From: Candidatus Heimdallarchaeota archaeon
GTDB lineage: Archaea > Asgardarchaeota > Heimdallarchaeia > Heimdallarchaeales > Heimdallarchaeaceae
Assembly (NCBI GenBank): GCA_016839945.1
Contig: JAEOTE010000019.1
Coordinates: forward strand, 326 to 64,325
Direction: 5' to 3'
Length of the DNA: 64,000 nt
The number at the start of each line of letters is the position of its first letter. The stretch's first letter is position 1. A program made the translations under genes and the position numbers. The notes under the pieces are model-generated. The model was not told the DNA's origin. It ran no database searches and worked only from the letters and a program-made list of their open reading frames with translations. Below are positions 1,905 through 42,863 of the stretch, piece after piece.

Positions 1905-2288
1905 AAGTTTCTCTTCGTTTTATTTAATCAGCACTTAATTCTCAGTCAAGGGAAAATAGTTTCAATAGGTTCTATTGAGGATTTGATTAGTGAACATGTA
2001 GGAGAAAAGGTACTACAAGTTGGTCTTACAAAGGATTCTGATGAATTTGAGGATTATCTTAAGATTAAACGTAAAACAGATGTTGATTTAGATTATGTGA
2101 GGATTAAGGATACCTTTTTCATTAAAAGTAACATTTTGACAGAGCTTATGGATGACATTATGGAGATAAATATAAAACGTGGGGGATTGAAGGAGACTTT
2201 TCTCTTCATGACTAGAGAACTCTATAATAATGTTGTTTTAAGTAGTGAAGAAACTCCAGAAGCTGCTATAGGGGGTAGTGGAGAATGA
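1905..2288 (+). pseudogene. 5'-truncated remnant of an ABC-2-type transporter ATPase (C-terminal part only)
   Basis: The frame is open from 1905. It reads ..VLFNQHLILSQGKIVSIGSIEDLISEH.., which is the end of an ABC nucleotide-binding domain, and ends ..LKETFLFMTRE (the usual LEDVFLxLTG tail). Walker A, signature and Walker B are absent. The 105 bp upstream abut the divergent gene start at 1799. Confidence 0.6.
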
Positions 2289-3690
2289 TAGTTATAGATT
2301 TAGCTTTTACTAGAATTAAACAAGTTCTTAGATCTAAGGAATTTTATTTTTATGTAATAGCTCTCCCTCTTTTCTTCCTAATTTTATTAGGATTTCTCAG
2401 CAAAGGTTGGGCTCCAACAACACAAACCATTGATATTGGTTACTATACCTCTGATGTTACTGTAATGGACCCAATAACTGGTGAAACTCTCAATATGGAA
2501 GAGGAATTCTTTAAATTACTAGTAGCGCATGAAACTGATGAAGACCTCAAAACTTTTTCAATTTCAAATCATACAGATTTAGAAGTAATGGATAAAGATA
2601 TACAAGATTTAATTATCCAAGGAGGTATAGAAATCCCTAGTGATTTTTCTTTTCAAGCTAGCAATATTACTAGATTTTACTCAGCTCTGATGATTACTCA
2701 ACTCCTTATTGAATCATTTGACTTGTATCCCGCTGAATTTTCCAGTATAAATGCATCTTTAGCAGAAATAGCCCCTTATATTGAAAGTTCAGCAGATTTA
2801 GTAGTTAAATTCCATGGAGATGTCACTTTACAAACAGCTATGCAAGCTTACACAAGTACCTGGCAAATATTAAGTGAATTTCTCGTTGATTACACTATTA
2901 TTCATGCTAATTCAATTTGGTTGGAACTGAAATCAACTCACGGACTAACCTTCGATTTGAACATAACAAGCCAATCATCAGATAGCACAATTACAACAGA
3001 AGTTCAGCTTATCAGTGCAGGAACTGGAGATGTAGTAGAGGATTTTCAAGGTGAATTCTTTTCCAGATTGCTTCCAGGACAAATTATTCAAATGATAACA
3101 ATGTCTTCAATAAGTGCAATATGGGTTTTAGATCAAGAAATCAGATCTGGCTTGTTAAAGAGAATCAAGCTCACAAAAATTACTTCAGTACAATATTTTG
3201 GAAGTTTTCTGCTAGCTTGGTCTTTAATCGCTCTTTTACAAGGAATTTTCATTTTAGTACTTTCAGCAATACTAGGTTTCTTCAGTTTTGCAATAAATCC
3301 ACTAGCTTGGTTAATGATGTTAGTGTCAATGGTGATGTTGGATTAATTGCTGCAACATTAGCATTGCTACTGGGATCTTTTATGGAAGGTAGAGTGGCGA
3401 CTCCGATACTAGTGCTTTTTGGGAGTACTATACAAATGTTTGTTGCAGAATATTATATCGAGGTACAAACAGCTTTTACATTTGCAGGAAAGAACTTCAG
3501 TGCATTAGATTTCGTTTTCTTAAGACCTGCTTTCCTTATTATGAAAAAAAGTATGGGACTTGAATCAGCTGCTGATGTAACATATATGCTCTTTGATCTA
3601 CTTGTATTGTTCCTATGGTTTGTTCTAATCTTTGCTATAGGAGCCACATTGTTCAATAAGTTCAAATTAAGATATGCGGAAAAAGAATAG
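2285..3690 (+). pseudogene. ABC-2 family transporter permease interrupted by a 1-nt frameshift near 3335-3346
   Basis: Track ORF 2285..3346 (N-terminal TM, large loop, TM bundle) stops at 3346. The hydrophobic continuation GLIAATLALLLGSFMEGRVATPILVLFGS.. runs in another frame (tail of ORF 3121..3690) to 3690. It overlaps the ATPase remnant by 4 nt, as in an operon. Confidence 0.6.
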
Positions 3691-19986: not shown

Positions 19987-20637
19987 TTGTTGAAAATGTT
20001 AACAAGAGATTTGAGTGTAACAATTCTTGGCAACACTGGTGTTGGAAAGACTACTTTAATTCATCGTTTAATTGGTGAAAAATTTGAAGATATTAGTCCT
20101 ACCACAAGTATTGAAGTTCATCAAAAAACAATTCGCTTAAGGAGTCAATCTATTAAATCTAGTTTTAGTTTAGAGAAATATAGAAATTATAGAGTTAGAG
20201 CAATTGATTGTCCTGGTGATATGAGTTTGTGGCCTTATTGGAAAAAAGCTCTAGCTGATTATAATACTAATGGTATTATTTTTATGATAGATCCAACACA
20301 GGATGCAAAAGTACAGATAGATGCACTTACTCAGGTTTCCAATTATTTCTTAATGACACTGGATGATGATGTTGCCAGAGCTGAAAGAAAAGCAAGAAAA
20401 GTGAAAGCAATATTTTTCCTTGTAGTAAACAAAGTTGATCTTCTCGACTATAGCAAAGGAAAAGCAGATCAAGTAATCAGAGAAAATTATCAAACAGCTT
20501 GGAATCATCTAAAAGAAAGATATCCAAATAGTGGTCATTACTGGGAAGCTATATCCGCTATCGATGAATCAGAACAGATGTATGAGTCTATCGATGGAAT
20601 TTTTGAAACAATAAAAAGAGAGATTTATGGAGACTAA
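19987..20637 (+). CDS. Ras-superfamily small GTPase (Rag/Arf-like, Asgard-type)
   Basis: G1 GNTGVGKTT, G3 DCPGD, G4 NKVD, G5 SAI. A ~25-aa insert sits between G1 and G3. Start is either TTG 19987 or ATG 19996. Confidence 0.8.
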   Translation: MLKMLTRDLSVTILGNTGVGKTTLIHRLIGEKFEDISPTTSIEVHQKTIRLRSQSIKSSFSLEKYRNYRVRAIDCPGDMSLWPYWKKALADYNTNGIIFMIDPTQDAKVQIDALTQVSNYFLMTLDDDVARAERKARKVKAIFFLVVNKVDLLDYSKGKADQVIRENYQTAWNHLKERYPNSGHYWEAISAIDESEQMYESIDGIFETIKREIYGD

Positions 20638-29854: not shown

Positions 29855-31576
29855 ATGAACTACCTAGCTCACTCTGATCCAATATTCTCTATTTTAACAG
29901 AAATGCTTAAGAGAGTAACATATGCACAAAAACTTATAGGAAAGCGGTTACCTCTTATGGAAGTGCAATATTCTAAACAAGAAAATAATCTTTTAGGTTG
30001 GCGGATTACTGGTATACTTCTTTATGTGTTTACTATTGCAGTTCTACTCGTAGGTTCAATTTATTTTGTTTGGTCTATTGTTCTAATATCACAACAAACA
30101 AATTCAACTACCATACTTCAAACTATTCTAAATATTCTTTCTCTTTGTGTTGAAGTGATAGGTATTTTTTATACAGTTATGTTATTTAAGCATGTAAGTA
30201 CAACATGTTTTAATCCACCTACTAAAACCATTATTGAATATCCTCTTCATGAATTTCCTCTGGTAAGTATTTTATTACCAATTCGTGAAGCTGATCCAAC
30301 AGTTTTAGAATCGTCACTTAATGCTATAGTACAATCCAATTACCCAAATGAGAAAATTCAGATAATAGTGGGTGACGATACAGATCCCTCATATCCTGCT
30401 TTTGAACAAATCAAAGAAATATGTGAAAAGAATAATGTGGACTACATACACGATGTAAGTAATTTGATGTTTAAAGCAGGTATGTTAAACATAATGTTGG
30501 AAGAAGTAAAAGCTGAATTCATGGTTTTATTAGATTATGATCATAAGATATCTCCTAATTTTGTAAGAAAAAGTGTTTCAATATTACTAAATGATGATGA
30601 TATAGCTTTTGTTCAATCTAAAGTCAATTTCTATAATATTAAATCAAGATTACAAGTCTGGGAAGCAGTGATGTATGCACAATTTTTTGAAGTATTTCAG
30701 CGTTCGAAAAATCAAAGATCAACCGTTCTCTTCAATGGATCTACAGCATGTTTTAGAAAAAGAGTAATAAAGGAAGTAGGAGGAATTCCTACAGATACTT
30801 TTACTGAGGACATTGATCTTTCTGTACAAATTCTTACAAAAGGTTACAAAAGTACCTTGATAGATGAATATGGAAGTCTTGGATTAATTCCTGGGAATTT
30901 TTCTCTTTTACTATCACAAATATTGAGATGGGCAAAAGGAAGTATGCACACATTAAAACTGAGATGGAAGAAAATTTTAGTAGGAAAAATGTCAATTTAT
31001 GATAAAATTGATCTCTATTTCAGTACTCTACTATTCTTTGTTGCTTCATCAATGTACCTGACGATTTTACTTTATGTAATCATGTTCTTTACAGATAGTA
31101 TGGCCATTAGATTGGGCTTTCAAGTCTTTCCACCTCTTATTATAATGCCAATTGCTTTTTCTGTGGCTTATCAAATTTCTGGATTAATTGCTGTTATTTT
31201 TGCTCGAAAAGATGGTTTGGTTCAAATGAAAATTATTGATTTAATTCTCTTTTTTGTTATAGCTCTATCACTTAATCCATTCACAGTTTATGCTGTGATA
31301 AAAACATTATTTCGATTTCGTCCTCCAAATAGAAGGAGAGATAAGTGGAATGAAAAAATTCCCTTTATTCCGTTATCTATACTTTTCTCGTTATTAGGAG
31401 CTGGTATTCTCGTAGTTTCTTATTTTGATTTTATGGGAGCAGGAACATTGTGGTTAGTATTATGTCTTTTAGGTTTATCATTGATTGCTACTTTTCCAGT
31501 GTGTATGTATTTCCATTTTACAACGAGACATAACAAACCTTATTTTGTAGCTCAAAATACACAAATCACCGAGTAG
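29855..31576 (+). CDS. processive family-2 glycosyltransferase (cellulose/chitin/PNAG-synthase-like), copy 1
   Basis: 573 aa. D,D,D,QxxRW signature: GDDT, LLDYDH, TEDIDLS, QILRWAKG. TM helices flank the catalytic domain on both sides. Confidence 0.8.
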   Translation: MNYLAHSDPIFSILTEMLKRVTYAQKLIGKRLPLMEVQYSKQENNLLGWRITGILLYVFTIAVLLVGSIYFVWSIVLISQQTNSTTILQTILNILSLCVEVIGIFYTVMLFKHVSTTCFNPPTKTIIEYPLHEFPLVSILLPIREADPTVLESSLNAIVQSNYPNEKIQIIVGDDTDPSYPAFEQIKEICEKNNVDYIHDVSNLMFKAGMLNIMLEEVKAEFMVLLDYDHKISPNFVRKSVSILLNDDDIAFVQSKVNFYNIKSRLQVWEAVMYAQFFEVFQRSKNQRSTVLFNGSTACFRKRVIKEVGGIPTDTFTEDIDLSVQILTKGYKSTLIDEYGSLGLIPGNFSLLLSQILRWAKGSMHTLKLRWKKILVGKMSIYDKIDLYFSTLLFFVASSMYLTILLYVIMFFTDSMAIRLGFQVFPPLIIMPIAFSVAYQISGLIAVIFARKDGLVQMKIIDLILFFVIALSLNPFTVYAVIKTLFRFRPPNRRRDKWNEKIPFIPLSILFSLLGAGILVVSYFDFMGAGTLWLVLCLLGLSLIATFPVCMYFHFTTRHNKPYFVAQNTQITE

Positions 31577-31583
31577 ATGGTAA

Positions 31584-33275
31584 ATGGAATGGAAAAAGAT
31601 TTTGTGGTACTGTTTAACTCTCTTCTTATTTGGATTTTTAATCTATTATGTTATTTATAGTAGCATCTACATTATTCAAACATATAAAGGAAATCTGACA
31701 AATTGGGTTGCAATAGTTGGATTAATTTTTAATTTTCTCATTCTAATAGTTGAATTATTCTCAGCATTTTTCTCAGTCTTCATTTACTATTACATAGGTT
31801 CTTCCTCTTCTTATAGAAAAATCGTGGATAACAAAAACAGATTTTTAACTTCTGATCCTCTTCCATCTGTAACTATACTTCTTCCCTTTTATAGAGAACC
31901 TTTAGCAGTAGTCTCGAAAACAATAGATGGGTCATTAAATCTAGATTACCCAAAAGATAGGTATGAAGTTGTAGTTTGTGATGATAGTCCTCCTGAACAT
32001 TCAAAGGAGATTAAAGCATTTTGTAAGGAAAGAAATGTAAAATTTATTCAAAGAGCCGAAAGAATAGGTTTCAAAGCTGGTGCCATCAATAATGCACTAA
32101 AGCAAATTGACAGTGATTTTTTTGGTATTCTGGATTCAGACCATATCCCTACACCTAATTTTATTCGAACTTGTCTATCTGGATTTGTTGAAGATGATAT
32201 TATTTTAGTACAAGGGAAACCAATGTTTGTTAATCAAGATAATTATCTTTTGAGAAGCAGTGCATACATCCATACTCAATTCTTCCATATCTATCAAAAA
32301 AGCAGAGGTACTAGAAATGGAGCTATTTTCGCTGGAACAACTGGAATGTTTAGAACTGACCTATTAAAAGAAGCTGGAGGATTTTTAGAAGATACATTGG
32401 CAGAAGATACTGATACATCATTTGTGCTAATGTCTAAAGGATATAAAACAAGATATATCCATGAAGTTTGTTCAAAAGGATTAGTTCCATGGAATCCTAT
32501 AAGTATGGTAAATCAAGTTTGGAGATGGACAAACGGAATAACATCAATATTTCGAAAAAGATTGTTCACAGTAATCAAAGGAAAAAATTCTTTCATTAAC
32601 AAAGTTGACATTGTTTCAACAGTTTTAACTCCAATAATAGGAATAACAATGTGGTTTGTTTACCTCCTCCTTTTTGTCATGTATTTACTCAAGGAATTCT
32701 CAATTTACGCTGTAGAAATGAATTTTGTAAGACCTGATATGGGTCAAAATATTCCTTTGTTACTTCTAGCTCCTGTTTTGATTTCTTTTGCTAGCTTGAT
32801 AATGGCTCTTGTAGCTTGGAGACGAGAAGAAAAGGAAGACAGAATGATTAAATTGAGAGGATTCTTTGGGATGGTTTGGACAATTACTGCTTTTTATTTG
32901 CTTATGATGACAGCACAATCTTTCCTAGTTTGGGCTGTTTTGAGTGCTTTACTAGGAGTAAAGAAAGAATTTGATAGAACTGTTAAAGAAAAAACTAAAA
33001 CTATGGGTAAGATGAGTAAAAAAATCAAATACACTATCTGGTCTATTGGTTTGTTCATTCTTGCTATAGGTTACTATTTTGCAAGCATTAGATCTTTCAT
33101 ATTTGGTGATGCCTTAGGGGGTTGGTTTATTATTGGGGCAATAACTATAACAATACCAATAATAATAACTATACAACATTTCCGACAATTAGAAACTATG
33201 AAGAAAGTTGCTGCAACTAAAACAGCGGAGGATGTTGAAAAAGAGTATGGTGAAAAACTGAATGGTATCAATTGA
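31584..33275 (+). CDS. processive family-2 glycosyltransferase, copy 2
   Basis: 563 aa with CDDS, LDSDH, AEDTDTS and QVWRWTNG. Same topology as copy 1. Confidence 0.8.
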   Translation: MEWKKILWYCLTLFLFGFLIYYVIYSSIYIIQTYKGNLTNWVAIVGLIFNFLILIVELFSAFFSVFIYYYIGSSSSYRKIVDNKNRFLTSDPLPSVTILLPFYREPLAVVSKTIDGSLNLDYPKDRYEVVVCDDSPPEHSKEIKAFCKERNVKFIQRAERIGFKAGAINNALKQIDSDFFGILDSDHIPTPNFIRTCLSGFVEDDIILVQGKPMFVNQDNYLLRSSAYIHTQFFHIYQKSRGTRNGAIFAGTTGMFRTDLLKEAGGFLEDTLAEDTDTSFVLMSKGYKTRYIHEVCSKGLVPWNPISMVNQVWRWTNGITSIFRKRLFTVIKGKNSFINKVDIVSTVLTPIIGITMWFVYLLLFVMYLLKEFSIYAVEMNFVRPDMGQNIPLLLLAPVLISFASLIMALVAWRREEKEDRMIKLRGFFGMVWTITAFYLLMMTAQSFLVWAVLSALLGVKKEFDRTVKEKTKTMGKMSKKIKYTIWSIGLFILAIGYYFASIRSFIFGDALGGWFIIGAITITIPIIITIQHFRQLETMKKVAATKTAEDVEKEYGEKLNGIN

Positions 33276-36036
33276 TGCTCGAATAATTTTTCCCATCGTT
33301 TCAATATTGGCAGTAGGTTCATTAGAGGTAGATATAATCAAGAAAAGAATTCTTCGTATCAAGGATTCAGAAACCATCTTAGAATATCTTCTTGAATCAC
33401 TCATTTTAGGTTCAATTTCATTGATAATTCTTATGCTGATAATTGCAAGACTTGCAGATGTATTCGGTTTAACAACAATTTTGGAAAGATTTGTTTATGT
33501 TTATTTTTCCATAGGTTTGGCTTATCTAGTCTTTAAAATCTATAAATGGGTACGAAAGAAACTTCCAATTTATGCACTCTCAGATAAAAAAAGAATAACT
33601 GGTTCACTAGGAATTCTGCTTATAGTAATTATTATGTTAATGTTGTTTTTTTATATATTACAAGGGTTAGTATATCCTCTCCGAGGTTGGGATTTTCTTC
33701 ATTTTTACCTTCCAAATTCATTTCGTATTTATGTAACAGGTCAACTAGGAAAAATAAATGAGCTTAACTTCCTCCCTCAATTTAAACCCCCAGCAAATAT
33801 TTTATTGTATGCTTATACTTTCTTTGTAACTCAAGCTGAAATGCTTCATTTGGTTCCGATGCTCTTTTTATCTGGAACAGTTTTTCTTTGTTACAAAATA
33901 GCAATAGCTGAAGGGCTTTCAAAAAAAGTAGCATTGTTTGGTTCTATTGCTTTTTTGGCTACACCTTTAGTCTTTTTCTTAGTCTATGAATTTCAATACT
34001 ATCAAGAAGTATACATTATGTTCTTTTCAGCTGCTAGTTTCTATTTCTTTAGGCAATTTCTGAAAAAGAATACAACCAGAGAAAAGATATATACAGCACT
34101 TCTAACATCATTAAGTCTTACGGGGTGTGTGCTTAGTAAAATTAGTGGATTCATTATCCCTTTAGTAATTCTTGTAGCTGTTCCATCAGACAAAATTGGC
34201 AAAATCGTAAGATCAATCATCATTATTGGATTCACATTTCAATTATTCAGAAAATCTCTTTTTGATATCTTTTTAGGGACAAGCATTTTTCTTCTTCTTA
34301 TTGCTGGATACTGTGTTTATCTTGTTATGACCAGCAAATCATTACCATTTTCTTACACTAGGTGGTTGTACATAGCAGGTATCTATTCACTTCCCTTGGC
34401 AATAGGCGTATTTTGGGGGATTTTCATCTTAAGTATTCCTGGAGTTAAAGAGTACTTTTTAAGTCTGTATGTAAACCCAGTTTATCAAGTAGTTAGCTTG
34501 AAATGGCCTGGAATAGGTTTACCAGAAACTGAAACCTATCTAGAAAACGCTCATCATGCAACCTTTATTTCTTCATCATTTTCTATATTCCTTGCTTCTA
34601 TGTTTGCTGGAACATGGATCATTTTCAAAATAATTGGAATAGTCAAAACAAATAAGGAAAATAAAGAGATTTTACTTTGGTTATTCTTCTTCTTTTTGTT
34701 ATGGCAAGGTTTGTTTGCACATGGTTCAATAAGATATCTAACTCCTATCTTGATTCCTATATCTCTAGTTTTTGTGGTTGGAATTGATTCTGTAATTAAA
34801 TTCTTTAATAAAAGAGATGGATTGGAAAGAGATGGTTTCTTCGCAACAATTTTAATTATTGCTAGCGCTTATCTCTCACTCTATCCAATTATACCATTTG
34901 AAATTGTAAACGAAGATTTTCATCTACGATGGTATCAGGCTCACACTCATATTGGATCCTTACTTGGTTACATATTTTTATTTAATCTGTTATTTTTCTT
35001 GCTATTGTGGAAGGAGAAAAAGCTAAAGTTAAGTTTCTCTATGATATACAATAAGAAATTCAATTCTCGTAAAATTCTAGCTGGTTTTATTATTTTTATT
35101 CTATTTTTTGTGCCTTTTGGAGCACAAGCAGCTCTATTGATTCATGTGAAATTTGATATAGATAAGTTCCACAGTGAGTATTGCTATTATACTCGTACAT
35201 CTTTATTAGAATTAATTGATGCAATCAATAGATTAGGCTATGATGATAATCAAACAGTTTTATCAATCAACACTCCTGGATTAGAATATTACGCATCTCA
35301 ACCAGTGTTTGACATGTTTATGTTGAGCTTCATTGCTAGATCTGCATTAAGCAATTCAACGTTTCCATTAGCAACGAAAAACATTACGAAAATCATGGAA
35401 TTTTTCCAAAGCTATAACGTAGCAATCTTTGTTTCATTAAACACATCAAATGATTGGTATCCAGCATATCTAGAACGATACTATTGGAATTATGATATAT
35501 ATAGATTGATGAATAATAATCTCTTATTTACTTGGAGATTTTCTAATGAAGAGTATCTAATGTATACAATTAATTCTTACGATCAGTATATAGGTCCAGT
35601 AGACATTCAACTCGCAGGAAATGAAAGTAAAGAAAGTTTGTTAGCTAGAAATCCAAATTCTGCTGAGGTTCATGGAAACTATGCAAATCTTGATACTCTT
35701 CTTGATTTAACAGTAGTACCAACAAACGAATTAATTAACGTTAGTCTTTCAACAGCATATAATTTTTATGAGAATTCCTCAACTACAGTTTTTACAAAAG
35801 ATATTCAAATTGAAAAACCTTTGAATGATGAGTTTAACCGTTTAACACTCCTTTCTTTACCTAATGAAACAATAGCTATACAATCTGTTAATATTACAAT
35901 ATCCTATGAAAATTATGAAGGATATGTAGAAGAAATTTCATACAAACTGAAAGCTTTCATGCAAGAATCTGTTATTATTCAGAGAAGTACCAACTTCTGG
36001 TCTTATTCGGGGTATTATGGTTTTATTTACATATAA
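33262..36036 (+). CDS. polytopic GT-C-like membrane glycosyltransferase (ArnT/PMT_2-like) with large extracytoplasmic C-domain
   Basis: 924 aa with more than 13 TM helices. The first loop RGWDFLHFY...FKPPANILLYAY, followed by an A..P-rich helix, resembles GT39/GT83. No WWDYG motif, so it is not AglB/STT3. The C-terminal ~300 aa are soluble and rich in NxS/T. Start uncertain; it overlaps the upstream gene by 14 nt. Confidence 0.45.
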   Translation: MVSIDARIIFPIVSILAVGSLEVDIIKKRILRIKDSETILEYLLESLILGSISLIILMLIIARLADVFGLTTILERFVYVYFSIGLAYLVFKIYKWVRKKLPIYALSDKKRITGSLGILLIVIIMLMLFFYILQGLVYPLRGWDFLHFYLPNSFRIYVTGQLGKINELNFLPQFKPPANILLYAYTFFVTQAEMLHLVPMLFLSGTVFLCYKIAIAEGLSKKVALFGSIAFLATPLVFFLVYEFQYYQEVYIMFFSAASFYFFRQFLKKNTTREKIYTALLTSLSLTGCVLSKISGFIIPLVILVAVPSDKIGKIVRSIIIIGFTFQLFRKSLFDIFLGTSIFLLLIAGYCVYLVMTSKSLPFSYTRWLYIAGIYSLPLAIGVFWGIFILSIPGVKEYFLSLYVNPVYQVVSLKWPGIGLPETETYLENAHHATFISSSFSIFLASMFAGTWIIFKIIGIVKTNKENKEILLWLFFFFLLWQGLFAHGSIRYLTPILIPISLVFVVGIDSVIKFFNKRDGLERDGFFATILIIASAYLSLYPIIPFEIVNEDFHLRWYQAHTHIGSLLGYIFLFNLLFFLLLWKEKKLKLSFSMIYNKKFNSRKILAGFIIFILFFVPFGAQAALLIHVKFDIDKFHSEYCYYTRTSLLELIDAINRLGYDDNQTVLSINTPGLEYYASQPVFDMFMLSFIARSALSNSTFPLATKNITKIMEFFQSYNVAIFVSLNTSNDWYPAYLERYYWNYDIYRLMNNNLLFTWRFSNEEYLMYTINSYDQYIGPVDIQLAGNESKESLLARNPNSAEVHGNYANLDTLLDLTVVPTNELINVSLSTAYNFYENSSTTVFTKDIQIEKPLNDEFNRLTLLSLPNETIAIQSVNITISYENYEGYVEEISYKLKAFMQESVIIQRSTNFWSYSGYYGFIYI

Positions 36037-36078: not shown

Positions 36079-39000
36079 TTACCTTCGAGAATATACAATG
36101 CTTTTCTGTTTTCTATCTCTTCTAGCTATAATCAGAGATGTTATGAATGCTATTAGTAGAACAAACACGATATTTATGAAGAAAATAGACCAACTTCCTG
36201 TTGGTGCAAAAGTATGTCCAAAGAAAACAGTTTGATTAGCTGAAGCTAAAAACTTCAAAATGGCTCCTCCTATACCATAACCAAAACAAGCAGCAATAAG
36301 CGCAACAACGCTTATTCGAGAAAAAATTGAAACAAATACATTCAGATTAGTTCCACCAATCATTCTTAGTATGGTGCTTTCTCTTCTACTTTCAACATGA
36401 ACATTTTGCAATATTGAATACATATTTACAACGACAACTATCATAATGAGTAGTATCTCAGCATAAGCTAAGGTGTAAGTAAACAATAATGAACCTTTCA
36501 AATAATAATCCATATATTCTAGAGAAAGAGAAATAAAAAATTCAAAACCAGCATATGCTCTAAAAGGTATTTTCAGCCATTGATCTTCTGTTTCACTTGC
36601 AACAATTATCGTAATAGCTTCTTTTCCAGGTTCAAAAGCTCTTCTTAAATTAATAATATTCTCGTTAAAATCAATAAAAGATACATTTACGTAACCATAC
36701 GAAATCCAAAGGGAAACACTAGAGTAGAAACCTGTTGTGGTAGAAATATTTCCATCAAATAAAGTTGAGAAAACAACAGGTAAATTGAATACTTTAGATC
36801 CATTATCATAAACAAAAATAAATGTAACTTTGCTTCTATGAGAAGGGATTTTAAGATGAGTATACTGATTCGGATTAAATACCTGGAACGATACTGGATT
36901 AGCATTTCTGTGATCTGAGAAATAACAAGTATAATCCCCAGTAGCTAACAAAGTAGAGATCATTCCATTGTTATCAGTTCGTATTGACAAAACTCTTCTT
37001 CCTCTTACATCTCTAAAGATGCAATATTGATCAATAAGAGGTGAATCTGCGAAGTAATCACTTAAAGAAATAGTAACATTAGAAAAACCAATAAATATCT
37101 CTTGTTCTAGACCTACATTTGTGTTTAGAATAAAATCATATTGCAAAGTACTATAGTTAAAATGCACATGATAACTCCCTGAAAATATGTGAAAATCAAG
37201 AACACCTTCATTATTTGTATTCTTTTCATATACCGTTGTATTAAAGTTACTTCTAACTATAACTGAAAAATTAGATAATGGAAGAAGGGTTCCACTTCCT
37301 TGTACTTGGAATAATAATTGCTGATTTACATATTCTTTCCCTACATATATTGTATAGTCTACTGTTTTTTGGTTGTACAAAGAATCTTCTAAAAACAAAG
37401 TTATTGTATGCTTGCCAGCTTCATTAAAATCAACTAAAGAAAATCCTTGATATTGAAAAAGAGGACCTCTGTGATCTAGTTGAACCAATATGTTGACAGC
37501 ATCACTTTCTAAATCTAGAAATACATCTATCTCATGGCTACCAATTTCTGGGGATAGAAAAGTCACATAAGGTGGAATTGTATCAATGATGTAATCGAAT
37601 GAAGATTGAGAATCTGGGAAACCAGTTAATATTGAAGAGAAATTGTAATAACCATCGCTTAAATGAATTGGATTATTATTATTTATAGTAAAATTACAAT
37701 CATAATAAGGAAATGTGACAACTATATCACCTGTATAACTACTGTTAATCTGGTTAGCTTGTAACTGTGAGGAGCTTAATCCTTCTGTAATATTGAAATT
37801 CCAGCTTTTTATTTCATAATTGAAAACATCTATCCAGTATTCAATAACTAATGTATATTCTCCTGGATAAAGATATATCCTTGTATACTCAGTAATTTCT
37901 CCACTAAAATTCGCTTCTCCAAAAATTTCATACTTTATTTGGAAAAAACCTATAGAAGATATGGTTTGAATATCAATAAATGTTTGAGTAATTATTCCAT
38001 AATAATCATGTGCAAAATAGAAGTCTACTGGTGTCGTTCCTGTAAAATTCTCAGTGTTATATTCATAGTATTTCTGTATCAGATTTCCTGCAATATCCCG
38101 GGCTTCTATTGTTAAATTATGATAACCTTCTTTAAATGGACAACTAATCAAACCATATGCATATGAAAAATCTAGATTGTCCCAAGAGTAGCGAATCATT
38201 GAAAGGCTCTCATTAGAAGTGTAAAACATAGAACTCCCTGAGCTAATATCAGAACTATTGGAATGCTCTAATGTTATATCAGGTGGAGAGTTGTCAATAG
38301 TAATTTCATAATCTCTAAAATACCATACTGAACTTATAAGAGTTGACAGATGAAGTGTATGATTCCCCTCACTCAAACTCTCTGCTATAATCGTTCCATT
38401 ATTAGGAACAGGAATATCTACTTGGCTATCCCAATGATAGAGAACATTTGAAGCACCAATAGTATACCAGATCTGAATCTCTTCACTTTCTTTTATTATT
38501 CTATCTTGTAATCCAATAATCCCTAACTTCTCTGGATTTGAGGATGTAATGAAGATATAACTCCATTCTTTATTCTGGTTCCCTATTGAAGCTTTAATTA
38601 CAAGTCTATGAATACCTTTTTCTGCAGGAGTACGAATATTATGATTTTCTAAAATTTGCCAAATATCACTATTCCACTTATATTTAATATTATGACCAAA
38701 GTATATAGAATCGTTGAGATAAAGATTGCTTGAATATGGAATATGAGATCCATTCATAGCATTAAGAATATGCAACTCCTCTGGGAGACTGTGTGATATC
38801 GTAAAATACACTTTTGTTTCAGCATAATTTTGACTCTTATCACCATCAGATTCATAATCCTTGTTATAACATATAATTGTTAGAGAATGAGGACCTTCAT
38901 CAAATGGAATTACAATTTGATCAGGCACTATCTCTCCTTCAGAAGAGAAATGATATTCCTGAATATTTCCAGGATTTTCATCATAATAGAAATATGTTGA

Positions 39001-40260
39001 ATAACCTTGTGTAGCTGAAATTGAAACATTAAGATCATACCCTATGACAAGACTATGATTCTTGGGAAAACTAACTTGAATACTAGGGTGTCTATCTATT
39101 AACACAACTTCAAAGTAGTTATCTTCTCCTGTTGTGAAAGAAAATTCTCGATGATAAACCCCATATCTAAATGCAGCAGTATAACTCCCATTACTTGTTG
39201 TGAAAGATGCTTCTCCTGTACTATTAGTAAATAGACTGTATGATTTTAGACCTAGAACTTGTTCTACTGTAGACTTACTTTGAACAAATATCCAAGCTTC
39301 CTCAATTGGCTCATCTTCATCTGTTATAACTCTAAATGTAACCTCTCTCTCTATATAATTAATAAAAATAGAAATTGAAGTATCTCTTTCCAATATAATT
39401 CGTTTTGGTTCTGATACAATGTTTTCAATTTCTGCTTGAATTTCATATTCTCCAAAAGATAAATTTAAATCTACAATATTTGTGTTTAAAGGATATAGTT
39501 TCAAAGTACCTTTACTACTACTAATAGTGATTGTAGAATTTAGGACTTCTAAGCTATCTGGTGTGTTAAGTATTACTCTTAATGAATATTCAGATGTGAT
39601 TTTTTCCCTAATATACTCTTTATCAACCAAATTTGTGTCTATTTTTACTCTTATGTGGGTAACTCTGTTAAAATTCTCAAAAGAGAAAAATTGTCCTATC
39701 CAAAGAGGTGCAATTATCTCATCATCCAACAATGTTCCTGATCTGAATATAGATTTAACCTTCAGTTCAATTGCAGAATCACTTCTAGTTGAAAAAATTA
39801 AAAAGTATTCTCCTATTTCTAGGTTGTTTCTTTCTGCAAAATTGATTCCAATACTTACTTCAAATGTATCATTTTCGTCTAGCTTATAGCCTTCTTCAAT
39901 TTGAATGTCTGTGAATTCTGAAAATTTATTAACATCAACCCCTCTAAAATAAACTGCTTTATCTCTATAAACTGCAGCAGTCATCACTTCAGGACTGACG
40001 TCAATAACACCATAAACCGTTTTTATTGTTTCTGCTAATTCTAGAGGTAGGACACTAGTATATGGTGTTGAAGCTTGAGGATTGAAAATTACAAGAATAT
40101 CATCGCTTTCACCCAAATAGGAAGTTGTAGAATCAATAATACTTGTCATAAGTATTGCTCCTCCTGTAATTATAGTTGAGCTGATTAAGAAACCAATAAA
40201 AGCGATGAGGATACGTTTCTTGGGTAATATGTTATAGAGAAAAACATTTCTGATGTTCAC
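36079..40260 (-). CDS. giant FtsX/MacB-type permease with ~1000-aa extracytoplasmic insertion
   Basis: 1393 aa. N-terminal TM plus MacB-like periplasmic domain (YGVIDVSPEV..AVYFRGVD...IGINFAERNNLEIGEYF). C-terminal FtsX 3-TM bundle (STILRMIGGTNLNVFVSIF..). The middle is beta-rich with dozens of NxS/T sequons. The GTG start overlaps the upstream stop (GTGA). Confidence 0.7.
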   Translation of the reverse strand: MNIRNVFLYNILPKKRILIAFIGFLISSTIITGGAILMTSIIDSTTSYLGESDDILVIFNPQASTPYTSVLPLELAETIKTVYGVIDVSPEVMTAAVYRDKAVYFRGVDVNKFSEFTDIQIEEGYKLDENDTFEVSIGINFAERNNLEIGEYFLIFSTRSDSAIELKVKSIFRSGTLLDDEIIAPLWIGQFFSFENFNRVTHIRVKIDTNLVDKEYIREKITSEYSLRVILNTPDSLEVLNSTITISSSKGTLKLYPLNTNIVDLNLSFGEYEIQAEIENIVSEPKRIILERDTSISIFINYIEREVTFRVITDEDEPIEEAWIFVQSKSTVEQVLGLKSYSLFTNSTGEASFTTSNGSYTAAFRYGVYHREFSFTTGEDNYFEVVLIDRHPSIQVSFPKNHSLVIGYDLNVSISATQGYSTYFYYDENPGNIQEYHFSSEGEIVPDQIVIPFDEGPHSLTIICYNKDYESDGDKSQNYAETKVYFTISHSLPEELHILNAMNGSHIPYSSNLYLNDSIYFGHNIKYKWNSDIWQILENHNIRTPAEKGIHRLVIKASIGNQNKEWSYIFITSSNPEKLGIIGLQDRIIKESEEIQIWYTIGASNVLYHWDSQVDIPVPNNGTIIAESLSEGNHTLHLSTLISSVWYFRDYEITIDNSPPDITLEHSNSSDISSGSSMFYTSNESLSMIRYSWDNLDFSYAYGLISCPFKEGYHNLTIEARDIAGNLIQKYYEYNTENFTGTTPVDFYFAHDYYGIITQTFIDIQTISSIGFFQIKYEIFGEANFSGEITEYTRIYLYPGEYTLVIEYWIDVFNYEIKSWNFNITEGLSSSQLQANQINSSYTGDIVVTFPYYDCNFTINNNNPIHLSDGYYNFSSILTGFPDSQSSFDYIIDTIPPYVTFLSPEIGSHEIDVFLDLESDAVNILVQLDHRGPLFQYQGFSLVDFNEAGKHTITLFLEDSLYNQKTVDYTIYVGKEYVNQQLLFQVQGSGTLLPLSNFSVIVRSNFNTTVYEKNTNNEGVLDFHIFSGSYHVHFNYSTLQYDFILNTNVGLEQEIFIGFSNVTISLSDYFADSPLIDQYCIFRDVRGRRVLSIRTDNNGMISTLLATGDYTCYFSDHRNANPVSFQVFNPNQYTHLKIPSHRSKVTFIFVYDNGSKVFNLPVVFSTLFDGNISTTTGFYSSVSLWISYGYVNVSFIDFNENIINLRRAFEPGKEAITIIVASETEDQWLKIPFRAYAGFEFFISLSLEYMDYYLKGSLLFTYTLAYAEILLIMIVVVVNMYSILQNVHVESRRESTILRMIGGTNLNVFVSIFSRISVVALIAACFGYGIGGAILKFLASANQTVFFGHTFAPTGSWSIFFINIVFVLLIAFITSLIIARRDRKQKSIVYSRR

Positions 40261-41432
40261 ATATGATCCTCCCTGATAACTTTAATTTTGGATGCTACTA
40301 TTGAAGGATATATTCCTGATACTATTGATAATGATATAGCAAATAAAAAAATGATTCCCACTGTTGCAGCATTAATATTCATTGATAAGAATGGTAATCC
40401 AATAAAAGCTGAAACTAAACCAACTATACCACTTACAGCAAAATATCCAATAAACAAAGAAAGAACAGCTGAAATAACACCAATAAACAAGGCTTGCATC
40501 ATAAACAGAAGAATTATTTGTCCCCTAGTTGCTCCAATCGATCTTAAAATAAATATCTCTTCTTCACTTTCTTTGACTAAGGTATAAATACTGTAAGTTA
40601 TAGAAACAAGCATCAAAGCAAAGAACATAATCTCTAGTAAGGTTAGTGTTTTTACTACCTCTTCAGTTGCATAACGAATAAAATTCTGTGTTTGTTTTTC
40701 TTCCGTAATTTCAAGACCATCAAACTTCATAGTTATTTCTTCAATTATTGTACCAACCTCTCTTGTATCTAAAATAAATAGCTCAATAAAAGACACATAA
40801 TTCAAAGTGGTATTTATAAAAAAATCGTTAATTGAACCTAAAACTTCAATATCAAATTCTTGACCCGTTTCTAGAATATTAGTTATTGTATAATTATCTT
40901 TAATATAGAACGAAGAAGATGAGTTTATTGTAATAATTGAGCTTTCTACTCCCACAATAGCTCCAGCTCCCGCAGTTAGAAAATTCACTATCTGTTGTCC
41001 CATAATTAACTCATTACTCTCTGGTGGTTCAAAACTATAGGTATACTTTGGATTGTGATATTGATGAAACGTAGTGAAATTCAATAAACGCAAATGTGTG
41101 TCAATCTCAATTCCAGTTTCCCCAACAACTGATATAGGAAAATAGAGTTGAGGTAAAATTATATTTACATTAGGTGTTGTTTCCGAATACTCTTCTAGAA
41201 AAGCAATAACCTCTATATCGATTCTGCTATCAGAAAAGCTTTTTTGATTTTCAGTAATTAGAAGATAATGTGATGGTTGGATTATATTTGCCATTCCGCT
41301 AATATTAGCAGCATATCCTCCAACAAGAAGAACTGTTGCAAGATAAATTACCAAAGCTAAGGTCAGAGTCAAAGTAGCTTGATATGTTCTCTTTCTGTTA
41401 TGAAAAAAGAATCTAACAATAAATCTTAGCAT
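40257..41432 (-). CDS. FtsX/MacB-type ABC permease-like protein
   Basis: 391 aa. N-terminal TM, ~230-aa external domain, FtsX signature ILRSIGATRGQIILLFMMQALFIG. Confidence 0.7.
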   Translation of the reverse strand: MLRFIVRFFFHNRKRTYQATLTLTLALVIYLATVLLVGGYAANISGMANIIQPSHYLLITENQKSFSDSRIDIEVIAFLEEYSETTPNVNIILPQLYFPISVVGETGIEIDTHLRLLNFTTFHQYHNPKYTYSFEPPESNELIMGQQIVNFLTAGAGAIVGVESSIITINSSSSFYIKDNYTITNILETGQEFDIEVLGSINDFFINTTLNYVSFIELFILDTREVGTIIEEITMKFDGLEITEEKQTQNFIRYATEEVVKTLTLLEIMFFALMLVSITYSIYTLVKESEEEIFILRSIGATRGQIILLFMMQALFIGVISAVLSLFIGYFAVSGIVGLVSAFIGLPFLSMNINAATVGIIFLFAISLSIVSGIYPSIVASKIKVIREDHM

Positions 41433-41531: not shown

Positions 41532-42863
41532 TTACGTTGGAGCTGCCCAAGAGAAGAAGAACAACCTCTGAATAATCAATGTTAGATATATTGAAACTGC
41601 TATTGCAAATAGTGAGGGTATTCTTGTTTTAGAAGGTGTAATCCTATTAACACCAATACCTAGGAAGAGCAGGAAAATTACTAGAAATATATTAAGTGGT
41701 ATTTGTACCGCAAGCTGGTACGTTAGGTGTAAAGATTCCTCAGCAAATATAGCTTCACCTGGGTGAAGTCCTATAGCTTCGAGATAAGTTGTTCCTCCAA
41801 ATATGCTTCCTATTAGAAGTAAAAAGATAGCAATTGATGAGATAAACATTGCATTCTTGTAGATATTTCCCCATTTTTTCCTTTCACCTAGTAAAGATGA
41901 ATAAATCAGTGGAAAGATAAATACCCATGAGAACCAAGTTACAGAACCAATTAGTATTTGATCTCCTACGTCACTCTCATGAATATTGAATGTACGAAAA
42001 TCAAAATCTGCTTCCAAACCACCTATCAAGTTACCTGGTGATAATGGATACACTCGCAATTCAACGAAATATCCACCTGCAAAACACATTATACTTAAGA
42101 AGACTATGAATGAAACAAATATGCTTATCAAGAAATAATTTGGGAGAAGTTCTGCATAACTTGCTCTTGTTGGTCTTAATAAGTAGTCTCTAGAGAATCT
42201 AAATATATCTTTTACATGTGTAAATTTGAATAACAAATAAACTGCTATCGCTGGTATTCCAATTACTGCAATTAGAAGTAGAATATACAGAATAAAGTCA
42301 ACTACACCAATTGTAAGTTTATCTAATAAACCATTCCAAATAAAGGTTTTAATATCAAAATCTGGCATCCCCTTGAAAGGTGGAGAACCAAATATAATCA
42401 TGGTATACCAGCTTATAGTTAAAGCCACAAATATTGTAGCCAAATAGTCCCATACTCTGAATTTCCTCTTTTGGGTGTCAAGATACCATAATTTCTTGTA
42501 AATGATTTCGGTTGCATCAACTTCAAAGTCTGAAAGAACTAAACCATCTATCCTTACTTCTCCATATTTCTCAAAGAATCTTCTGGCAATCATATCGAGG
42601 AGGTCCTCTGTATCTTTTGTATCCATCCTTTTGTCAACTGTTAAAACAAACAATAGGTCGCTTTCTTCCTCTTGAAAAACTACTCTTGATGTCACCATTT
42701 CAAATTCAGATATTTTCTCTCTTTGGGTTTCAGAAGCCATAGAATATATGGCACTCATTAAACCACCAGTGAGAGCAATATCAACAGCCTCTTCAGTTTT
42801 CTCAAATTCTTGACTATAGAAAATCTGTCCATAAGTTGTTAAGATGAGAAGATGCTTTATCAC
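41532..42863 (-). CDS. membrane protein: N-terminal longin-like domain fused to a ~7-TM domain
   Basis: 443 aa. The first ~115 aa are soluble (MIKHLLILTTYGQIFYSQEF...GGLMSAIYSMASE...LLFVLTVD...LLDMIARRFFEKYGE), followed by seven hydrophobic helices. Confidence 0.5.
   Translation of the reverse strand: MIKHLLILTTYGQIFYSQEFEKTEEAVDIALTGGLMSAIYSMASETQREKISEFEMVTSRVVFQEEESDLLFVLTVDKRMDTKDTEDLLDMIARRFFEKYGEVRIDGLVLSDFEVDATEIIYKKLWYLDTQKRKFRVWDYLATIFVALTISWYTMIIFGSPPFKGMPDFDIKTFIWNGLLDKLTIGVVDFILYILLLIAVIGIPAIAVYLLFKFTHVKDIFRFSRDYLLRPTRASYAELLPNYFLISIFVSFIVFLSIMCFAGGYFVELRVYPLSPGNLIGGLEADFDFRTFNIHESDVGDQILIGSVTWFSWVFIFPLIYSSLLGERKKWGNIYKNAMFISSIAIFLLLIGSIFGGTTYLEAIGLHPGEAIFAEESLHLTYQLAVQIPLNIFLVIFLLFLGIGVNRITPSKTRIPSLFAIAVSIYLTLIIQRLFFFSWAAPT

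Follow-up and report, generated by a model that had tools for sequence, protein, structure and literature searches.

Two overlapping genes for FtsX-type permeases, here called FtsX-S and FtsX-L, were analysed in a 64,000-nucleotide stretch of DNA (the window; positions 326 to 64,325 of contig JAEOTE010000019.1, assembly GCA_016839945.1) from a Candidatus Heimdallarchaeota archaeon of the family Heimdallarchaeaceae. On balance, the two products are probably distinct membrane subunits of one LolC/LolE-like ATP-binding cassette (ABC) complex of type VII whose ATPase is encoded elsewhere in the genome, with a protein designated NBD-B as the best candidate for that ATPase. FtsX-S (391 amino acids; 40257..41432, minus strand) was classified as a LolC/LolE-like type VII ABC permease subunit from Pfam FtsX, AlphaFold2 (AF2) and Foldseek results. 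FtsX-L (1393 amino acids; 36079..40260, minus strand) was likewise classified as a type VII ABC permease subunit, one whose ectodomain is giant, from Pfam FtsX and 25 orthologues. What is understood of type VII ABC systems (MacB, LolCDE, FtsEX) comes almost entirely from bacteria.

An earlier note on this DNA had described two genes that overlap at GTGA. Both open reading frames (ORFs) were present, and the overlap was read at 40257..40260 (minus strand), where the FtsX-S stop codon meets a GTG start codon of FtsX-L. A Shine-Dalgarno-like GGGAGG lies 7 nt upstream of this GTG (40268-40273, minus strand). The public gene call of FtsX-L (P0074, 1356 amino acids) begins 37 codons past the GTG at 40260 and cuts into the first transmembrane helix (TM1). 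Since the 25 orthologues align from residue 1 and a Shine-Dalgarno-like site is present, the longer form with the GTG start is supported and the public call is probably too short. The FtsX-L ORF is free of interruptions, and its 25 full-length orthologues comprise 1384-1445 amino acids at 43-78% identity. The FtsX-S and FtsX-L genes stood side by side in every genome examined, and the two proteins were barely alignable with one another (32% identity over 69 residues). The overlap and the adjacency mark a translationally coupled, heterodimer-like gene pair, from which we infer the heterodimer itself.

Family profiles, hydropathy and structure models placed both proteins in the type VII ABC class. 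The Pfam FtsX profile (PF02687; gathering cut-off 25.5 bits) was matched at 51.8 bits in FtsX-S (residues 268-384) and at 45.2 bits in FtsX-L (residues 1269-1384). The Pfam MacB_PCD profile (PF12704; cut-off 27 bits) was matched by FtsX-L at 26.8 bits (residues 25-208), just under its cut-off, and by FtsX-L orthologues from two sister families at 49 bits (G031) and 38 bits (G037). In both proteins hydropathy gave TM1, an ectodomain (residues 46-257 in FtsX-S and 43-1255 in FtsX-L) and then TM2-4. These FtsX scores and this 4-TM type VII topology bear out the MacB/FtsX layout that had been proposed for both products. FtsX-S comprises an N-terminal amphipathic helix, TM1 (residues 17-45), a Porter/Sabre-type ectodomain (46-257) and TM2-4 (258-381). 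FtsX-L has a MacB-like alpha/beta core ectodomain of the Porter/Sabre type at residues 43-223 (39592..40134, minus strand; MacB_PCD and AF2) and an FtsX TM2-TM4 bundle at residues 1256-1382 (36115..36495, minus strand; Pfam FtsX at 1269-1384 and hydropathy).

The AF2 model of FtsX-S, built from 32 sequences, had a mean predicted local distance difference test score (pLDDT) of 81.6 and showed the amphipathic helix, an alpha/beta ectodomain flanked by TM1 and TM2, both of them long, and then TM3 and TM4 (helices 13-50, 247-288, 303-344 and 355-381), with a short cytoplasmic-loop helix at 290-299. When this model was compared with the PDB by Foldseek, full-length LolE/LolC were matched at E 1e-18 and MacB at 4e-16, and further matches were to Spr0694/5, YbbP, HrtB, YtrF, BceB and FtsX. 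The FtsX-S ectodomain matched the periplasmic domains of LolC, LolE and MacB with TMt values of 0.52-0.65. A PDB profile search with the FtsX-S family returned LolF/LolE/LolC at 1e-17 to 1e-14. For FtsX-L, a single-sequence PDB search returned no matches and the family profile gave only a chance-level match.

The (I/L)R(S/M)IG(A/G)T motif reported in the earlier note, present as ILRMIGGT and ILRSIGAT, was located in the cytoplasmic loop between TM2 and TM3. This coupling loop spans residues 288-303 of FtsX-S (KESEEEIFILRSIGAT; 40524..40571, minus strand), where it was recognised from conservation and the AF2 helix, and residues 1290-1305 of FtsX-L (ESRRESTILRMIGGT; 36346-36393, minus strand), where it was recognised from conservation. 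The FtsX score, the topology, the Porter/Sabre-type core and the TM2-TM3 coupling helix of type VII ABC permeases were all found, and at fold level FtsX-S and FtsX-L are assigned to this class on profile and model evidence. Neither fell into a narrower family among the NCBIfam models searched. FtsX-S scored 62 bits against the lolCE model TIGR02212 (cut-off 362.45) and is not an equivalog member; FtsX-L had no NCBIfam match at all, the lolCE models (TIGR02212, TIGR02213, NF008076) included. The division-FtsX models (TIGR00439, NF038346, NF038347) scored 18-20 bits against cut-offs of 225-255.

The external part of FtsX-L was confirmed as a beta-rich expansion of about 1000 residues, which the earlier note had put at roughly nt 36570-39600. 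It was placed at residues 224-1223 (36592..39591, minus strand) as about 11 sequon-enriched beta-sandwich domains from AF2, hhalign and sub-threshold Pfam matches. In the AF2 model of residues 50-1245 (pLDDT 74.5) about 11 all-beta domains come after the alpha/beta core, and a linker modelled with low confidence lies near residues 829-865. Confidence in this model is moderate (predicted TM-score 0.48), and its inter-domain geometry is unreliable. The repetitive look of the region, also remarked on earlier, was traced to two classes of diverged internal repeats (hhalign probabilities 83-97%). The first class comprises domains 3-6 (residues ~392-739), which are tandem and Ig-like, and the second comprises domains 2, 9 and 10, which are prealbumin/CarboxypepD_reg-like. 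Thus both types of repeat that had been suggested for an AlphaFold check, Ig-like and CarboxypepD_reg-like, were present among the sequence repeats, and the modelled domains were all-beta. Pfam matches in the array (CarboxypepD_reg, Big_13, bMG3 and SdrD_B) were all below their gathering scores and are hints only.

Foldseek searches with the ectodomain model returned generic multi-Ig arrays only, including contactin. The top matches were to multi-Ig/MG proteins (the Aureispira grappling hook GhpA, alpha-2-macroglobulin/complement and streptococcal C5a peptidase) at E 1e-22 to 1e-11, but the likeness was one of domain-level fold only (TM-score <= 0.15, ~10% identity), with no family-level match. 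When 1.84 billion representatives were searched in full for the array with HMMER, just 9 clusters matched at E <= 1e-30; these are read, from their length and match position, as orthologues or fragments of FtsX-L, and the other matches were local and covered one or two Ig domains. The earlier note had named a known adhesin or S-layer family as the finding that would overturn its view of the ectodomain. No such match to the whole array was found by Pfam, PDB profile, Foldseek or the HMMER search of 1.84 billion representatives.

The ectodomain carries 27 NxS/T sequons against 14.6 expected by shuffling, an enrichment of about 1.8-fold. Each of the 25 FtsX-L orthologues was enriched, with 22-34 sequons where 13-17 were expected (z 2.3-4.9). 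The "dozens" of sequons claimed earlier therefore held as an enrichment and not as a number, which is about two dozen. The array is likely to be N-glycosylated.

Homologues of the pair carried Heimdallarchaeaceae or Heimdallarchaeota (Asgard) names, among them Candidatus Heimdallarchaeum aukensis. FtsX-S was single-copy in 30 of 31 Heimdallarchaeaceae genomes, the exception being a 1.2-Mb, 76%-complete bin, and FtsX-S and FtsX-L together belong to the single-copy core genes of this family (f1). Distant orthologues in the same two-gene layout were found in three sister families of the same order, f2 (G031), f3 (G032 and G034) and f4 (G037 and G036); the G031 pair encodes proteins of 385 and 1394 amino acids with 30% and 25% identity. 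In a class-wide search the pair was not detected in any of the remaining three families of the class.

No ABC ATPase gene was found near the pair, in agreement with the earlier note. PF00005 (ABC_tran) had no match on the whole 68.7-kb contig, and a six-frame scan of the window for Walker A and LSGGQ motifs returned nothing except a small GTPase at 20029. There was no ABC ATPase gene within 10 kb on each side of the pair in an H. aukensis-type locus (L001) or in GCA_030603365 (L003), and none beside the pair in G031, in G032 and G034, or in G036 and G037. In the closed genome G005 the nearest ABC_tran matches to the pair were 66 kb and 103 kb away, and all 11 other FtsX loci of that genome had an ABC_tran gene within ~1 kb.

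Loss of an adjacent or fused ATPase by misassembly, or a chimeric origin of the giant ORF, might be suspected from the source genome (G000), a fragmented metagenome-assembled genome of 186 contigs that is 88% complete, and from the N-terminally short public call of FtsX-L. Against this, the same gene order and lengths recurred in more than 30 independent assemblies, including the two single-contig Heimdallarchaeaceae genomes G005 and G006. These closed genomes refute an assembly artefact, which retains practically no probability. Because it holds in two closed genomes and four families, the lack of a linked ATPase is stable throughout the order; an adjacent or fused ATPase emerging after assembly correction, which the earlier note had said would refute its proposal, was found in none of them.

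Elsewhere in the window, an ORF fragment at ~1905-2288 (plus strand) resembles the C-terminal end of an ABC ATPase and is followed by a 353-residue ORF at 2285-3346. It is a C-terminal fragment only, as expected from its earlier description as an unrelated remnant and the window's only ABC ATPase trace, and it was rejected as a partner of the pair because neither a Walker A nor a signature motif is present. The fragment has the appearance of a transporter gene that has decayed or been truncated. Separately, a region of the closed genome (G005:C1:102600-153166) encodes several proteins of 1009-1505 amino acids with weak FtsX matches, each adjoining genes for ATPases with a single or double nucleotide-binding domain (NBD), so FtsX proteins that combine large ectodomains with a linked motor also occur in Heimdallarchaeaceae.

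The source genome was searched for an unlinked FtsE/MacB-type ATPase, as had been proposed, and two candidates were obtained. These are the MacB-clade ATPases NBD-A (244 amino acids; G000:C24:32987-33721) and NBD-B (238 amino acids; G000:C133:12349-13065), neither with an FtsX-type permease beside its gene. The description of the pair as "orphan" consequently applies to the locus but not to the genome, in which two conserved unlinked MacB-clade ATPase genes are present. NBD-A and NBD-B are left over because an ATPase gene adjoins every one of the G000 FtsX loci on contigs C82, C76, C62, C182 and C16. Set aside in this count was an FtsX ORF on the 3.1-kb contig C116, which is too short for ATPase linkage to be judged; a possible ATPase for that locus is the MacB-clade protein C42_14271, encoded at the end of contig C42.

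Clear, single-copy orthologues of NBD-A were found in 31 of 31 and of NBD-B in 30 of 31 Heimdallarchaeaceae genomes. Walker A, the signature motif, the Walker B glutamate and the H-loop are all retained in both proteins. In a maximum-likelihood tree NBD-A and NBD-B formed sister groups (94/94) nested in a clade of FtsX-adjacent ATPases. No FtsX-type permease was encoded beside either gene in closed G005. The neighbours of NBD-B differ between genomes (a coiled-coil protein and an Opp permease cluster in G000, NikR and fumarase in G005), and it is considered the better candidate motor because it is the only ATPase without any conserved neighbour.

The NBD-B orthologue in three genomes of the genus (G009:C87:37457-37930, G019:C3:14934-15401 and G026:C21:14214-14693) was found in a frame of 272-275 amino acids that matches residues ~77-236 only, and one of the three carries an internal TAA. 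In these the N-terminal part, including Walker A, seems to have been replaced or frameshifted.

The neighbourhood of NBD-A was compared in three genera (G000:C24:28617-35831; L009 8033-13752; L007 2081-10340). It includes a protein of 580-690 amino acids with helix-turn-helix and RING-finger domains, and a MazG-like protein of ~110 amino acids in G000 and G005. It also includes 4-TM (~125 amino acids) and 9-TM (~375 amino acids) proteins without a Pfam match, which in G031 follow the ATPase in the order ATPase, 4-TM, 9-TM. This neighbourhood may represent an undescribed ABC-type system.

Several observations weigh against assigning either ATPase to the pair. NBD-A and NBD-B are candidates only; they never share a contig with the pair, and in G005 the distances to it are 0.2 and 1.25 Mb. 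The G031 orthologue of NBD-A (97/83 support) is directly followed by genes for the 126-residue 4-TM and 374-residue 9-TM proteins, homologues of which lie 3-7 kb from NBD-A in G000 and G005, so NBD-A may serve these membrane partners of its own instead of the pair. The presence of such proteins nearby in three genera weakened NBD-A as a cleanly partnerless ATPase. Its class-level phylogenetic profile could not be compared usefully with that of the pair, as outside Heimdallarchaeaceae the signal was lost in paralogue noise (46-51% identity everywhere). For NBD-B, no clear orthologue was found in the pair-bearing sister families, where all matches were at <= 45% identity. Of the four NBD-B-like candidates in G031, an 85%-complete genome, three adjoin permease-type membrane-protein genes of their own and one lies at the edge of a contig. 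Finally, an ATPase-less arrangement that is stable across a whole order fits a loss of ATP coupling too.

Such a loss would leave the FtsX bundles as a heterodimeric anchor displaying the glycosylated array as a coat, S-layer substitute or adhesin. An anchor of this kind is consistent with the lack of an ATPase gene beside the pair in four families and two closed genomes, and with an ectodomain that is large, sequon-enriched and composed of Ig-like and prealbumin-like domains, as in surface proteins; nor could NBD-A or NBD-B be tied to the pair. However, a passive anchor would let the cytoplasm-facing segments drift, and these were the best conserved. With conservation measured as the mean top-residue frequency in each protein family, the N-terminal cytoplasmic segments and coupling loops ranked highest in both proteins (0.78-0.91), the coupling loop reaching 0.91 in FtsX-S, its top segment, and 0.84 in FtsX-L. 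The FtsX-S ectodomain scored 0.61, and in FtsX-L the MacB-like core scored 0.80 against 0.59 for the beta array, a further difficulty for the anchor. Two intact MacB-clade ATPases without a neighbouring FtsX-type permease are moreover kept in the same genomes, and we are not aware of a type VII ABC permease for which function in the absence of an ATPase has been demonstrated. A motorless anchor was therefore considered unlikely. The conservation of the coupling loops and N-termini argues for a retained cytoplasmic partner, and a trans-encoded motor is more likely than a motorless machine because conserved unlinked MacB-clade ATPases exist and the coupling loops are the best conserved segments.

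A mechanism for a pair with a trans-encoded motor was modelled on LolCDE, FtsEX and MacB (PMC5985334, PMC7668044, PMC11491553, PMC12646458). FtsX-S and FtsX-L would form a heterodimeric 8-TM bundle, and a trans-encoded ATPase dimer would dock on the two coupling helices. NBD-A may act with or instead of NBD-B, and an NBD-A/NBD-B heterodimer would match the heterodimeric permease. Closure on ATP binding and hydrolysis would move the TM1/TM2 stalk helices through the coupling helices and so shift the core ectodomains. The stalk motion would in turn drive or gate the fused array of about 11 domains, or a substrate held between the core domains. Work would be done outside the membrane, on a surface glycoprotein, a glycan or a lipid-linked intermediate, together with two proteins encoded beside the pair, a PMT-like (GT-C) membrane protein and a longin-7TM protein. 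By analogy with these systems, the earlier note's suggestion that the pair could act on a surface structure, by moving or remodelling it, is plausible.

Among known systems LolCDE (LolC, LolE and LolD2; PDB 7ARH, 7MDX, 9RLD) is the closest. It likewise has two different single-FtsX-domain 4-TM subunits encoded by adjacent genes, it shares the Porter/Sabre-type ectodomains and the TM2-TM3 coupling helix, and it is the best sequence and fold match of FtsX-S. It differs in that the Heimdall pair has no lolD-like gene in its operon, that FtsX-L carries an extra array of ~1000 residues, and that the host is an archaeon without an outer membrane; LolA and LolB were not searched for. Archaea also lack peptidoglycan, a difference from the setting of FtsEX. 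In FtsEX with EnvC, PcsB, CwlO or RipC, ATP hydrolysis is passed via the FtsX bundle to an extracellular envelope-acting module (PMC7668044, PMC11491553, PMC10694151). The logic proposed for the Heimdall pair is alike, running from a cytoplasmic ATPase through the FtsX bundle to an extracellular module. However, FtsEX has an FtsX homodimer with a small ectodomain, a separate effector and an adjacent ftsE, whereas the "effector" of the Heimdall pair would be fused and its ATPase unlinked.

MacB, YbbAP-TesA, BceAB, HrtBA and YtrEF share the TM fold and stalk of FtsX-S (Foldseek E 1e-16 to 1e-9), and YbbAP shows that an extracytoplasmic enzyme can serve type VII systems as a partner (PMC12646458). 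Unlike the Heimdall pair, these systems have a fused or adjacent ATPase and ectodomains of ~200-250 residues, with no multi-domain Ig array. The pair is thus set apart from solved type VII systems by its unlinked ATPase, the extreme asymmetry of its subunits, the array inserted between core ectodomain and TM2, and the conserved GT-C and longin-7TM partners.

No archaeal example of a type VII ABC system was found in a literature search, nor anything specific on Heimdall surface proteins. Asgard cell surfaces are poorly understood. In glycoproteomics of Promethearchaeum syntrophicum, a Lokiarchaeial and not a Heimdall Asgard, none of the putative S-layer proteins was detected (PMC11284389). Given both, FtsX-L is a concrete candidate for a Heimdall envelope component, being a conserved surface protein that is probably glycosylated and may be moved by ATP. 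The analysis also raises a testable pairing, with NBD-A or NBD-B as the motor of the pair. Should no ATPase partner be found, the pair would be the first FtsX bundle that is motorless or driven in another way.

The gene next to FtsX-L encodes the 924-residue multi-pass PMT-like (GT-C) membrane protein (33262..36036, plus strand) and is convergent with FtsX-L across a 42-nt gap. Pfam PMT was matched at 29.1 bits (cut-off 22.7), and a single-sequence PDB search returned no matches. The gene was in the same position in L001 and L003 (f1) and in f2, where the protein has 31% identity over its full length. GT-C enzymes of the PMT/ArnT class act with lipid-linked sugars on the membrane's outer face. 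Upstream of this gene are two membrane GT2 glycosyltransferases of 573 and 563 amino acids (29855..33275, plus strand; Pfam Glyco_trans_2_3, Glycos_transf_2 and weak Cellulose_synt), linked to the module in f1 only (L001, L003) and absent at the G031 locus. The only neighbours that persisted beyond Heimdallarchaeaceae were the GT-C protein and the longin-7TM protein, and these conserved neighbours would point to an envelope or glycan-related role.

The longin-7TM protein (443 amino acids; 41532..42863, minus strand), whose gene is separated from FtsX-S by 99 nt, has a cytoplasmic longin-like N-domain, recognised from a weak Pfam Fuz_longin_1 match, and ~7 TM helices. It suggests another way in which the pair might be driven, with the coupling helices docking the longin-like domain or a small GTPase recruited by the longin-7TM protein. 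In f1 (L001, L003) and f4 (G036 and G037, the latter at 33% identity) the longin-7TM gene lies immediately upstream of the pair and in the same orientation, and conservation of the protein extends over the same order as that of the pair, with full-length copies in families f1-f4 at 32-96% identity (L015 3889-5310, minus; L018 2411-3706, plus; L017 697-1989, plus). However, the Fuz_longin_1 score of 22.5 bits is under the cut-off of 26.1. In f2 and f3 the gene shows no linkage to the pair, upstream of which SecY (f2) or a tetratricopeptide repeat protein (f3) is encoded instead. In the f4 genus g13 the longin-7TM protein was found in 4 of 4 genomes with no pair in the class-wide search, and the one g13 locus examined (G045) has no FtsX gene beside the longin-7TM gene. 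In addition, the coupling-loop motif is the canonical FtsX motif, and we know of no earlier case in which an FtsX-type bundle has a non-ABC driver. A driver of this kind was judged very improbable. Slightly more doubtful again is a Heimdallarchaeales-specific, longin/GTPase-controlled machine in which the FtsX pair, the longin-7TM protein and the GT-C protein would build or remodel a glycosylated surface with no ABC ATPase. If true, a regulatory fold of eukaryote type would thereby be joined to a mechanotransmitter of bacterial type.

Three minor observations were made on the longin-7TM protein and the genes upstream of the pair. In a fifth family, ORFs of 247-272 amino acids match just the N-terminal ~110 residues of the longin-7TM protein. 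The SecY gene of f2 (G031) adjoins the pair on its upstream side and has the same orientation (L004 7735-9183, plus). In f3, a Ras/Roc-type small GTPase of G034 (Pfam Ras, 140 bits) is encoded ~3.4 kb upstream of the pair (L005 5828-6412, plus).

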